This document shows, in pieces, positions 3,713 to 7,763 of a stretch of 30,074 nucleotides of DNA. Each line of letters opens with the position of its first letter. Positions within the stretch are counted from its first letter, which is position 1. Source of the DNA: Campylobacterales bacterium (lineage in GTDB: Bacteria > Campylobacterota > Campylobacteria > Campylobacterales > JALSKU01); NCBI GenBank assembly GCA_027038335.1, contig JALVWI010000191.1:6270-36343 (forward strand). Direction: 5' to 3'. The notes beneath the pieces were generated by a model. It made no database searches and was not told where the DNA came from. It saw only the letters and a program-made list of their open reading frames with translations. The position numbers and the translations under genes are program-made.

Positions 3713-3730
3713 AAGCAAATACTATTCCTT
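3713..3730 (-). promoter_or_regulatory. Sigma-54 (-24/-12) promoter for flgP
   Basis: Minus strand AAGGAATAGTATTTGCTT has GG-N10-GC spacing with a Campylobacterota-type GGAA...TTGCTT core. It overlaps the gyrA TAG and lies about 40 bp upstream of the flgP ATG. Confidence 0.65.
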
Positions 3731-6241
3731 TTTTTCATTTAGCAAATTTAGAATGTTGCTATTATTTGCTTCAGAGATAACATCTTCTGTGTCAAGTTCA
3801 CTCTCTTCTTTAGGACATCTTGCGATACTAACAACATAATCTTCGCCTTCAATATTGACTATCTTTACTCCGCTAGTATTTCTTCCGGCTTTTCTTATGC
3901 TTTTCATATCTACTCTTACCATTTTACCTTTTGAGGTAAGCACCATAAGATCTTTGCTTTCGTCAACTATAACTACTCCGACCAAATCTTTTGTTTTAGG
4001 AGTTAATTTCATAGCTATGACACCTTTGCCGCCTCTTTTTTGCAGTCTATACTCTGATGCTGTTGTTCTTTTACCTACGCCTTTTTGACTAACGCTTAAA
4101 AGTTCTTCCTCGTCATTATAGATGATCGTAGCACCTGTAACAAAATCACTCTCTTCCTTAAATCTTATACCGGTAACTCCTTTAGCGGTTCTTCCCATCT
4201 CTCTAACATCATTTGCATTAAATTTAATACACATACCTTTTCTAGTAATGATAAAAAGATATTTTGCTTCAGGCATAACTATCTTAGCTGTCACAAGAGA
4301 GTCATCTTCGTTGAGTGTTATGGCTCTTACTCCTACACTTCTTATATTGCTAAAATCACTTAGATTTGTTTTTTTAACAAGTCCTTTTTGTGTAAAAAAT
4401 GCTAATGATTTATTTTCGTCAAAGTCTGTTGTCGGTATGATCTCCATGATCTTTTCGTCAGGTTGGAGATTTAAAAGGTTAACTACGGCTTTTCCTTTTG
4501 CGGTTCTGCTACCTTCTGGAATTCTATAAACTTTTAGCCAATACAGTTGACCTCTATCAGTAACAAACATAAGAGTATCGTGGGTATTGGAAACAAAAAA
4601 GCTCTCTATAAAGTCATCATCATAAGTAGTAAGAGCTGTTTTTCCTTTTCCGCCTCTTTTTTGTTTTTCATACTGTTTAAGTGCAACTCTTTTTATATAG
4701 CCTCTATGAGTGATGGTAACCACCATAGGCTCGTTTGGTATCAAGTCTTCTATATCTATCTCACCATAATCATCTACTACTTCAGTAAGTCTTGGTGAAC
4801 TAAATTTATCTTTTACTTCTATAAGTTCATCTTTTATAAGTTTATTTAGCAACTCTTCACTTTTTAGTATTGCACTTAGTCTTTCTATCTCTTTTAAAAG
4901 TTCTTTAAGTTCATTTTCTATCTTTTCTCTTTCAAGTCCGGTTAGTCTATTTAGCTTCATATCTAGTATAGCACCGGCTTGTATCTCACTTAGAGAAAAG
5001 TTATCCATCAGTGCAGATTTTGCTGTTTTTGTATCTTTACTCTTTTTTATGATAGCGATAATTTCATCAATGTTATCAAGAGCTATTTTTAAACCCTCTA
5101 AGATATGAGCTCTAGCTTTTGCTTTTTCAAGTTCATAGATAGTTCGTCTTATAAGAACGGTTTTTCTATGTTTTAAAAATAACTCAAGAAGTTCTAAAAG
5201 ATTAAATACTTTAGGTTCTTTATTTTCTATAGCAAGTAAAATAATACCGAATGTTACTTCAAGATTGGACGATTTATAAAGGTTATTTAAGATGATTTCA
5301 CTCATTGCATCTTTTTTAAGTTCTATTACAACCCTGATACCGTCTCTATCACTCTCATCTCTGATCTCTGAAATGCCATCTATCTGTTTGTCCTTAACAA
5401 GTGAGGCAACTTGTTCTATAAATTTAGACTTATTTACCTGATAAGGAAACTCATCTATAACTATGACATCCTTATGCCCCTTTTTTTCTATGTGGGTTTT
5501 GGCTCGTATTTTTATGCGACCTCTACCGGTATTGTAAGCATCGATGATACCTCTTTTGCCAAAGATAACTCCACCGGTAGGAAAATCAGGAGCTTTTACA
5601 AAATTGGTCAATTCAGATATCTCACATTCTGGATTATCTATGAGATACAATAAAGCATCTATAACTTCTCCAAGATTGTGTGGAGGAATATTGGTAGCCA
5701 TACCTACTGCGATACCGCTTGAACCGTTTATGAGAAGGTTTGGTATCCTACTAGGAAGCACATCAGGTTCACTCATACTATCATCATAGTTCGGTATAAA
5801 ATCAACTGTTTCTTTATCTATATCTTTGAGCAACTCTTCACTTAAAGATGTCATCCTAGCTTCAGTATATCTCATAGCCGCAGCATTGTCACCATCTATT
5901 GAGCCGAAGTTTCCCTGTCCATCTATAAGAGGAAGTCTCATAGAAAAAGGTTGAGCCATTCTGACAAGTGCATCATATACAGCATTGTCACCGTGTGGGT
6001 GGTACTTACCGATAACATCACCGACTATCCTAGCTGACTTTTTATAAGCAGCTCTTGAGCTGAGGTTTAGTTCACTCATCGCATAAAGTATTCTTCTATG
6101 TACCGGTTTAAGACCATCTCTAGCATCAGGAAGTGCTCGACCTATGATGACACTCATAGAGTAGTCAAGATAGCTCGTTTTTATAGAGTCTTCTATATTG
6201 ATATCTTGTATGTCTTGATTTTGTTCAAAAATATCGTTCAT
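3722..6241 (-). CDS. gyrA: DNA gyrase subunit A
   Basis: [45 protein letters not shown] catalytic Tyr, GyrA-box QKRGGKG. The ATG at 6241 is preferred over the TTG at 6247 because of the upstream AAAAGG. Confidence 0.99.
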
Positions 6242-6315
6242 TACCAACCTTTTGGAAGTTTAAAATATATTTATTTTATCCAAAAAATCCATAACATATG
6301 CTTAAATCATTTATT

Positions 6316-6342
6316 TAGGGGTCAGGTGATAGTAATAGTACT
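6316..6342 (+). repeat. Inverted repeat, gyrA-proximal copy (TAGGGGTCAGGTGATAGTAATAGTACT)
   Basis: Exact reverse complement of 7158-7184. Contains the TGA stop and the last six codons of the nuclease gene. Confidence 0.97.
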
Positions 6343-7101
6343 GTTTCTTTTTATGATGGCACTTACGGTAGGTTGTGAAAGTTTAAGTAATTTTGCTATC
6401 GTATGTTGTGAATAGCCGTTTTTATATGCTTGGCATATTTTTTTATTTCTCTCTTTTATATTGTCTATATTTGAGAAAAATTTTTGCAATTTTTTTATAT
6501 CAGTTTTATTCTCTTTTTGTGTAGCTTCTATTAGCATAGAGGCTTTTTGCAACTCTTTTAATATATCTTTATCTAAGGGTGAGTTTAAAAAGTTTTTTAT
6601 TTCTTTACTTTTATGGAAATTTTTAACTAACCAAGAGTTTTTCAAACAAGGGGGTAGCTCTAAATCATTTAAGATATAGTAAGCACTTTGATAGGGGTAT
6701 TCACCGATATCGTTTACAATTTTTGCTTTTATAGGGTTTTGTTCTATATACAATATCAATGAGTATAGATATGCTTCATCTGTTACATACCATGATTTGT
6801 ATCTTCCTTGCCATAAATGACCTGCTCTTTTATATTTTTTATTAAAATATATCGCATAATTCATATTTATTTGTCTCATAAATTTTGATAATTCTTCATT
6901 TTTGGTTTCTAGTAAGAGGTGATAATGATTGTTCATGAGAGAAAAGCTATGTAAATTTATATCAAAGCTTTTTGCATAATCGCATATCAACTCTTCAAAT
7001 TTCTTAAAATCTTCTTTTTCATAAAATACTACTCTTTGCTCTACTCCCCTATTTATAATGTGGTAAAAACCCGGTATATCAACTCTTGGTTTTCTTGGCA
7101 T
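6322..7101 (-). CDS. REP-associated tyrosine transposase-like (TnpA-Y1/RAYT) HUH endonuclease with a C-terminal helix-turn-helix
   Basis: MPRKPR...YHIINRG N-terminus, HUH motif H59-Y60-H61, GHLWQGRYKS, putative catalytic Y118 in YIEQNP, HTH-like GYSQHTIAKLLKLSQPTVSAII. RBS AAAAGGAAA. Confidence 0.9.
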   Translation of the reverse strand: MPRKPRVDIPGFYHIINRGVEQRVVFYEKEDFKKFEELICDYAKSFDINLHSFSLMNNHYHLLLETKNEELSKFMRQINMNYAIYFNKKYKRAGHLWQGRYKSWYVTDEAYLYSLILYIEQNPIKAKIVNDIGEYPYQSAYYILNDLELPPCLKNSWLVKNFHKSKEIKNFLNSPLDKDILKELQKASMLIEATQKENKTDIKKLQKFFSNIDNIKERNKKICQAYKNGYSQHTIAKLLKLSQPTVSAIIKRNSTITIT

Positions 7102-7157
7102 AGTATTTCCTTTTGATTAAATAATTGTATAAAATAGTTTACAATGAATTTACTTAA

Positions 7158-7184
7158 AGTACTATTACTATCACCTGACCCCTA
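7158..7184 (-). repeat. Inverted repeat, comF-proximal copy (AGTACTATTACTATCACCTGACCCCTA)
   Basis: Exact reverse complement of 6316-6342. Lies 6 bp from the comF stop codon. Confidence 0.97.
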
Positions 7185-7190
7185 TATAAA

Positions 7191-7763
7191 TTATTCTCTT
7201 GCATCTGCTAGAGTTAGAGCAAATAAAACATTAACTCCATTTTCTTCCAATATTTTTTTAGCTTCTTTTATAGTAGAGCCCGTCGTAATGATGTCGTCAA
7301 TAATGATGGCATCTATATTTGAGTGGTATTTGTATGTAAAATTTCTAGGATTATTTTGTCTAAATTGTAGAGATTTACCTGAATAATTTATCTTATTTTT
7401 AGCCCTTAAAGCTGAGTGAACAGGTGTTATATAGGTTGATTTTAGATATTTGTTAAGTATAGCAGTATGAGAGTAACCGTTTTTTGCATGATCATCACAT
7501 GCAAAAGAGTAAGTTTTATTTATAAACTTAAATTCTTTACCAAATTTTCTGAAGCTTTCTTGTGCTAAGATACGATATATGAAATATCCTACAAATTTAT
7601 GTTTTGTTAGGATAAGATTTTTGACAGCACTATATTTATAAAAACTATATACTTCAAAATCATTTTCAATCACTCTTTTATATAAAGACGGTTTTAAAAA
7701 CTCCTTTTTACATTTTTTGCATATATGACTAAAAGAAAATGCCCCACATATCAAGCAGTACAT
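7191..7763 (-). CDS. comF: ComF/CtsW-family phosphoribosyltransferase-domain competence protein
   Basis: N-terminal CxxC...CxxC (CLIC, CKKC) and PRPP-binding IIIDDIITTGSTI. Positioned between the lipoprotein gene and gyrA, like Campylobacter ctsW. Confidence 0.85.
   Translation of the reverse strand: MYCLICGAFSFSHICKKCKKEFLKPSLYKRVIENDFEVYSFYKYSAVKNLILTKHKFVGYFIYRILAQESFRKFGKEFKFINKTYSFACDDHAKNGYSHTAILNKYLKSTYITPVHSALRAKNKINYSGKSLQFRQNNPRNFTYKYHSNIDAIIIDDIITTGSTIKEAKKILEENGVNVLFALTLADARE

Follow-up and report, generated by a model that had tools for sequence, protein, structure and literature searches.

A probable TIRtron between gyrA and a comF-like gene of a Campylobacterales bacterium, with ends recurring as single copies and hairpin doublets

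Introduction

RAYT-like genes which are enclosed by terminal inverted repeats (TIRs) have been described by Di Nocera, De Gregorio & Rocco (2013, BMC Genomics 14:522; PMC3733652) under the names TIRtrons and TIRYTs. In the text of that paper the main type of TIR is characterised by a shared end motif, GGGGWSAS, the ends can overlap the 3' end of the gene, and the families of ends are moderately abundant in some members, occurring as singles, dimers and groups, with paralogues possessing separate families. The text of Quentin, Siguier, Chandler & Fichant (2018; PMC6006769) equates TIRYTs with subclass 2.1 of TnpA-Y1 and with Group 1 of Bertels. It lists as motifs of this subclass NH[YF]H or NHVH, W[EQ], and YIELNP or Y[IV]HLNP (Y---NP for class 2), and as C-terminal tails HTH_23, HTH_28 or Bac_DnaA_C; the subclass is present in about 15% of the surveyed strains, is prevalent in epsilon-, beta- and delta-proteobacteria, has a median length of 238 amino acids (aa) and, according to the same text, no REP-like repeats were found for it. 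Bertels, Gallie & Rainey (2017; PMC5581495) found the 16-mers flanking Group 1 genes to be modestly repeated (about 12 occurrences) and RAYT groups to behave like housekeeping genes. The present study deals with a RAYT-like gene and its inverted ends in a stretch of 30,074 nucleotides (nt), henceforth called the window, which comprises positions 6,270 to 36,343 of contig JALVWI010000191.1 (C191:6270-36343) from the genome of a Campylobacterales bacterium (GCA_027038335.1, here G000; 1.45 Mb in 315 contigs, 89% complete, 32% GC).

A first-pass annotation, made from the letters of the window, had put this gene and its ends forward as an undescribed system. Since the same ends and the same protein family are present in the text of PMC3733652 and PMC6006769, this claim cannot be upheld: the kind is already in print, and the locus is a clean example of it and not a new system. 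We are confident that the unit is a TIRtron, i.e. a single-copy TIRYT gene (TnpA-Y1 subclass 2.1, Bertels Group 1 RAYT) with its own cognate 25-nt TIRs.

Results

The unit is located between the start of gyrA (3722-6247, minus strand) and the end of a comF-like gene of the phosphoribosyltransferase type (7191-7763, minus strand). A repeat search places its inverted-repeat arms at 6305-6342 and 7158-7195, each of them comprising 38 nt of which 36 (95%) are complementary, with 815 nt between them. Within these arms a perfect core of 27 nt, TAGGGGTCAGGTGATAGTAATAGTACT, which consists of TA followed by GGGGTCAGGTGATAGTAATAGTACT, occupies positions 6316-6342 and recurs as its exact reverse complement at 7158-7184. 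A perfect inverted pair of this length within 1.9 kb of DNA with 32% GC is far beyond chance. The TA outside the left arm (6316-6317) adjoins GGGG and has its counterpart outside the right arm (7183-7184). The left, gyrA-side arm itself (6318-6342, plus strand) is composed of the head GGGGTCAGG, a T, the tandem words GATAGT AATAGT (6327-6339) and ACT, and the right, comF-side arm (7158-7182, minus strand) is its exact reverse complement, the inner end of which is found 56 nt upstream of the ATG. The end head GGGGTCAG (6318-6325, with its complement at 7175-7182) fits the TIRtron motif GGGGWSAS.

The sole long open reading frame (ORF) between the arms (6322-7101, minus strand) encodes a protein of 259 aa. 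Read on the minus strand, the left arm supplies the last six codons of this ORF (STITIT) together with the stop codon, the TGA of which (6322-6324) coincides with the TCA of the GGGGTCAGG head. No tnpB-like ORF is found next to the gene among the ORFs of the window, and a single arm adopts no stable fold (-0.7 kcal/mol, z -0.55). In these respects the first-pass annotation, which had reported perfect 27-bp inverted repeats around one HUH/Y1 ORF, a RAYT-like gene with TIRs rather than REP hairpins, no adjacent tnpB and a TA outside GGGG/CCCC, agrees with our observations in its coordinates and motifs alike. Chance or an assembly artefact was considered as the origin of the arms and discarded, as they recur in independent sister-species assemblies as well as in contigs of four public sequencing runs.

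The 259-aa protein matches the Pfam family Y1_Tnp (E 3.4e-16) and harbours the motifs N58-H59-Y60-H61, W97-Q98 and Y118-I-E-Q-N-P123. Its HUH/Y1 core (residues ~6-140) is followed by a helical linker and a putative C-terminal helix-turn-helix (HTH; ~215-253). Sequence matches of the HTH are weak, the best being HTH_23 with 20.0 bits compared to a cut-off of 24.6 (E 5.9e-4); PF13384 is among the precomputed hits of several homologues, and a homologue profile likewise matches HTH proteins weakly. In the AlphaFold model (pLDDT 85.4) the C-terminal 45 residues form three helices (215-227, 232-239 and 243-253). A search with the single protein sequence against solved structures gave no useful match, while a profile of 24 homologues matched E. 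coli TnpAREP (4er8, E 9.9e-5), and 4er8_A is also the best Foldseek match of the model (E 3.9e-7, TM 0.71 by target), followed by the ISDra2, IS608 and IS200 transposases. Model and profile predict the HUH-Y1 fold of TnpAREP and IS200; the HuH and Tyr motifs of the protein are intact, and an HTH is predicted at its C-terminus. Across the TIR-flanked clade, HuH, W and Tyr are likewise intact and vary hardly at all, which we take as an argument that catalysis is in use.

That the locus simply represents a canonical known family, be it IS200/IS605 with its TnpA or the classical REPtrons, whose REP hairpins have a GTAG foot, appears highly improbable. Fold and Pfam family are indeed the same, and JGI labels some homologues "REP element-mobilizing transposase RayT". 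However, the protein scores below cut-off both with NCBIfam REP_Tyr_transpos (66.9 bits, equivalog cut-off 80) and with transpos_IS200 (26.2 bits, cut-off 55), its Tyr motif is Y---NP instead of Y---Q, and there is neither a tnpB nor any high-identity multicopy occurrence, nor does the single arm form a hairpin or possess a GT[AG]G foot. An assignment to classical REP/REPIN was rejected on the lack of a GT[AG]G-footed hairpin, the unfolded arm and the REP_Tyr_transpos score, and one to IS200/IS605 on the lack of tnpB, the transpos_IS200 score and an identity among paralogues of merely 44%.

A homologue is present in 24 of 60 related genomes and is distributed patchily among genera; in several of these genera inverted repeats enclose the gene, starting with GGGGTCAGG and diverging thereafter. 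Of those Campylobacterota homologue loci which offer at least 150 nt of flank (68 loci, by record title from Sulfurovum, Sulfurimonas, Arcobacter, Sulfurospirillum and others), 54 exhibit flanking inverted repeats, almost all of them headed (G)GGGTCAGG. In these loci a distance of typically 30-57 nt separates the upstream arm from the ATG, and the stop codon is contiguous with, or overlapped by, the downstream arm. The statement of the earlier annotation according to which ends of the GGGGTCAG type recur around similar genes in other bacteria proved correct, including for other genera.

Within the genus, gyrA directly adjoins comF in G001, where query positions 606 and 1492 are separated by 2 nt, and the two genes are adjacent or close in G003, G004, G005, G006, G009 and G010. 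Since seven congeners are thus devoid of the unit at this site, at least one insertion or one precise loss must have occurred. Orthologues with 82-84% identity are located beside comF in G002 and G007, with the same right junction and with extra DNA toward gyrA. A three-way alignment of the units from G000, G002 and G007 yields 79.5-83.7% identity for the interior and 92-96% for the left arm, while the right arm is identical at 25/25 positions, a level of conservation reached by 0.7% of the 25-nt windows of the unit. Being present beside comF in three species with an interior which is about 80% identical, the unit predates the split of these species. As its arms are conserved to 92-100% compared to about 80% in the interior, their perfect match is to be attributed to constraint and not, as had been suggested in view of the lacking mismatches, to recent arrival.

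Nearly invariant in the three orthologous units are also the 23 subterminal nt inside the right arm (7135-7157), which belong to the 5' untranslated region of the gene; the stretch between this block and the ATG contains indels in the same three-way alignment. A consensus scan of the minus strand upstream of the ATG, including the right arm, revealed no convincing promoter. A TACAAT was dismissed as promoter element since it is located on the plus strand and the gene on the minus strand.

The spacer between gyrA and comF (6248-6317; loci L040-L050) is variable in the genus: in G008 another gene follows gyrA, and G009 contains about 180 extra nt. At the left junction in G002 (locus L041 on contig C106, ~570-625) part of the arm head, together with 8 nt of flank, is duplicated in tandem, AGATTTCAGGGGTCAGGTGATAG being present twice, and the right junction of the same locus (~1470-1500) contains a short repeated TAGATATG-like word.

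To be weighed against this record is the assumption, made in the first-pass annotation, that the ~870-bp gene-plus-ends unit is an active autonomous insertion sequence (IS) which moves as a whole via pairing of its distant ends. Consistent with it, the limits of the unit coincide with the arms, seven congeners are without the unit between gyrA and comF, and the family is patchy among genera. Yet there is one copy per type per genome, the paralogues are merely 44% identical, and occupancy of the same site in three species at about 80% nucleotide identity implies that no move has taken place for a long time. The unit is also found, at about 99% identity, in contigs from four hydrothermal-vent runs of three studies, for which Logan contigs, in which rare variants are invisible, were the sole source. 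The depth of the gene body equals that of the comF flank in the three comparable runs (275 vs 266, 202 vs 209 and 72 vs 59); the fourth run, X7, is too shallow for such a comparison. No contig joining gyrA to comF without the unit is present in the vent runs, contigs being unable to show rare variants. In bins which contain an arm the depth is 2- to 39-fold higher, about 10-fold on average. In contrast to the gene, the arm has multiplied. Single copy number, orthologous position and a depth equal to that of the flanks weaken the case for an active IS to such a degree that we consider it unlikely, and what recurs in the genome as singles and doublets is the arm itself.

Apparent joints from 6340 to 7162 in these contigs hold 33 unrelated letters between the arms, which identifies them as other arm-loop-arm copies rather than excision products. 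One Logan contig covers exactly positions 6313-7184, because assemblers break at repeated ends, and many homologues are situated on contigs of 0.9-1.3 kb. As a result of such breaks, metagenome-assembled genomes probably contain too few TIRtrons and too little of their repeat families. In run X1 the depth on the gyrA side (556 at 5900-6300) is about twice that of the TIRtron (275) and of the comF side (266); this excess may originate from a co-occurring relative sharing gyrA or from some cells differing at the junction.

Beyond the unit, the 25-nt arm has 13 matches in the genome at up to 3 mismatches, compared to 0 for a reversed control pattern. They include three inverted doublets of 44-54 nt (C85:2131-2180, C166:6920-6963 and C240:438-491), of which that on C166 is a perfect 44-nt palindrome, and about five further arms which are single. 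Folded as single-stranded DNA, the doublets are predicted to form hairpins of 22-26 bp (-25 to -30 kcal/mol, z -11 to -14). The statement of the annotation that REP doublets are missing applies to the window and fails for the genome, which contains tight inverted doublets of the arm. TA adjoins GGGG in 11 of the 13 copies of this arm (family A) and is absent at the arms of a second family described below (family B), which makes it either part of the family-A repeat or the preferred target of the latter. In those genus members which possess a TIR-flanked gene, GGGGTCAGG is counted 8-30 times, compared to 0-3 times for controls, and G001, which is 100% complete and without homologue, contains it once.

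The doublets differ between species. That on C166 is present in G000 and G002, and the same intergenic site exists in G007 without it; that on C85 is present in G000, G002 and G007 and missing in G008, G003, G010 and G001. Judged from these comparisons, doublets seem to move, or at least to come and go.

Two further homologues, each of them 44% identical to the protein in the window, are encoded in G000. The first, on contig C26, constitutes a second TIRtron (C26:712-1784, locus L010). It is framed by its own inverted repeat, GGGGTCAGGGTTCAACTTTTAACTTTTT, which defines family B; its 28-nt ends have the GGGGTCAGG head in common with family A and differ in the tail, and here, too, the stop codon lies within the head. 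Copies of family B are found as a doublet on C239 (140/201) and as singles on C273 and C55. On C26 the gene is followed by a run of N and then by a duplicated 3' end plus arm, an arrangement suggestive of a scaffolding error at the repeat.

For the second paralogue, on contig C67 (C67:9310-10068, corresponding to locus L009:1501-2259, minus strand; 43-49% identical), flanking inverted ends were not found. Its locus is syntenic in nine genus members (orthologues at L035, L018, L036, L017, L020, L038, L021 and L022), whose whole 3.7-kb loci align at 74-83%. The HuH motif of this type is decayed (DRYY, DHYY, THYL, ESYQ), and most members have H or F in place of the Tyr, while the HTH is nearly invariant. 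By its sequence, the C67-type paralogue looks like a catalytically dead, domesticated derivative of a TIRYT. Loss of catalysis and ends with retention of the HTH indicates that the protein family is retainable for DNA binding alone.

This observation raises the question whether the gene in the window is itself fully domesticated, its protein acting mainly as a sequence-specific DNA-binding regulator or hairpin-processing factor without any transposition. The ends, one of which is situated upstream of the gene, would then be operators, with the dispersed copies serving as regulatory or structural sites. The right arm and the 23 subterminal nt upstream of the ATG, which form the most conserved part of the unit, would be in line with such a role, as would the conserved HTH, its persistence in the C67 type without catalytic residues or ends, and the housekeeping-like behaviour of RAYT groups (Bertels et al. 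2017, PMC5581495). However, conserved catalytic residues in the TIR-flanked clade and turnover of the doublets, which are gained or lost between close species, weaken this explanation, and arm copy number tracks the presence of the gene. We therefore hold full domestication of the window gene to be quite improbable.

The part of the arms which distinguishes the two families follows a rule of its own. Behind GGGGTCAGG(T/G), the variable tail usually consists of one word of 6 or 7 nt in two tandem copies: besides GATAGT AATAGT in family A and TTCAACT TTTAACT in family B, related loci exhibit TGATAA, ATGCTA, TAATGC, TGACAA and GATAAC, and, as 7-nt words, TCAAATT, TTAAACT, TTTGACT and TTGAATT, each of them twice. 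Among 45 distinct tails, near-perfect tandems make up 47%, compared to 5% among shuffles and 17% among flank controls (Mann-Whitney p 3.5e-6), the related loci in this test (L071-L150) not being mutually independent. The word differs between lineages, both copies changing together. Certain recognition helices go along with certain words, namely NQATVQR with ATGCTA, SQPAV(Y/H)G with GATAAT or GATAAC, and SRSL(I/V)SK with GCGTTGAAAAT. In partial Mantel tests, the correlation of tail with HTH given the core amounts to 0.37, compared to 0.17 for tail with core given the HTH and 0.22 for tail with linker given the core, a covariation which is confounded by shared ancestry since the permutation test leaves ancestry in; we regard it, at the level of sequence, as a lead and not as a result. 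In the text of PMC3733652 and PMC6006769, figures aside, we found neither the tandem-word rule nor a decayed paralogue.

Discussion

Taking E. coli TnpAREP and IS608 TnpA as models, we envisage the TIRYT as an enzyme which is active in trans and has single-stranded DNA as its substrate, probably at the replication fork. A hairpin would arise there by pairing of two arms, be they those of a doublet or those of the gene-bearing unit. Located where the stem of this hairpin has its foot, the conserved GGGGTCAGG head would constitute the site of recognition and nicking by the HUH/Tyr core, and the HTH would read the variable tail, usually two tandem words of 6-7 nt, thereby providing each paralogue with its own repeat family. 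The gene-bearing unit would nowadays be a resident, vertically inherited source of the enzyme and not a jumping insertion sequence.

Tentatively, and with somewhat more doubt than conviction, we extend this picture to a two-part recognition by TIRYTs: the invariant GGGGTCAGG head would be addressed by the HUH/Tyr core and the tandem 6-7-nt words by the HTH, the words serving as a private address which separates the repeat families of paralogues. Members of the family could, in addition, drop catalysis and ends and be kept solely for binding DNA, as the C67 type suggests.

Several points weigh against the proposed action of the TIRYT on its dispersed ends. The analogy with the model enzymes is our source for cleavage, for the choice of strand and for what the HTH would do, and in the literature searched we found no biochemical or genetic test of any TIRYT or subclass 2.1 protein and no later mechanistic work. 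The vent-run contigs, in which rare variants are invisible, contain no direct sign of current movement. Filled and empty alignments of the unit and of two doublets do not permit a target-site duplication or the exact ends to be fixed, because the flanks have diverged to about 80% identity and contain extra indels; of the comparison with relatives recommended in the first-pass annotation, the empty gyrA-comF site was obtained in seven congeners. The sequence beside a doublet differs at filled sites as well, and presence or absence of doublets between species could equally stem from deletion. The repeat families are small (about 13 and 7 copies), which implies that activity is low or ancient. 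As no REP-like repeats were found for subclass 2.1 according to the text of PMC6006769, dispersed copies are not universal. Finally, the shared ancestry underlying the covariation of HTH and tail also counts on this side.

TIRtrons are common, about 2,000 homologues being found with this query, and the present locus is suited for a test at the bench: it offers clean ends, filled and empty sites in sister species and natural miniature copies with two ends, while the C26 paralogue with its different end represents a built-in specificity control. Tandem words matched to the HTH provide a concrete prediction for how end specificity might be set.

Among known systems, IS200/IS605 transposases (IS608, ISDra2) share with the protein the HUH/Y1 fold and, presumably, single-strand chemistry. 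In contrast to these elements, which are without TIRs, the locus does possess TIRs and shows no subterminal hairpins, no tnpB, a Y---NP instead of a Y---Q motif and no multicopy occurrence.

Closer is the resemblance to E. coli TnpAREP with REP/BIME and to the REPIN-RAYT systems of Pseudomonas (Bertels & Rainey 2011). 4er8 is the best structural match, and in both cases a single-copy, vertically inherited gene resides beside a repeat which it presumably spreads, with doublets forming long hairpins and with one family per paralogue. Unlike these systems, the unit in the window lacks a GT[AG]G foot, its single repeat is non-palindromic, the protein carries an additional tail of 120 aa made up of helices and the HTH and scores below the NCBIfam RAYT cut-off, and copy numbers are in the tens, not hundreds.

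To subclass 2.1 or Group 1 the protein fits by its motifs (NH[YF]H, W[EQ] and Y---NP), and by a length near the 238-aa median, a C-terminal HTH being likely from the model and the weak sequence matches; low copy number, low identity among copies, epsilon-proteobacterial prevalence and modest repeats are further common traits. Deviating from the description of subclass 2.1, the Tyr motif reads YIEQNP, with Q for the consensus L, and thus corresponds to neither YIELNP nor Y[IV]HLNP, and the ends are repeated in the genome as hairpin doublets.

From the TIRtron as described in the text of PMC3733652 the locus differs in nothing essential: both feature a RAYT-like Y1 gene, TIRs instead of REP hairpins, GGGGWSAS ends, one end placed over the 3' end of the gene, copies as singles and dimers, and paralogues with ends of their own. 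New is the host lineage, a population of Campylobacterota which, judged by how homologues and runs are named, originates from hydrothermal vents. To the existing picture of TIRtrons the locus adds orthologous occupancy in three species, polymorphism of the doublets, tails built of tandem words and a catalytically decayed paralogue.

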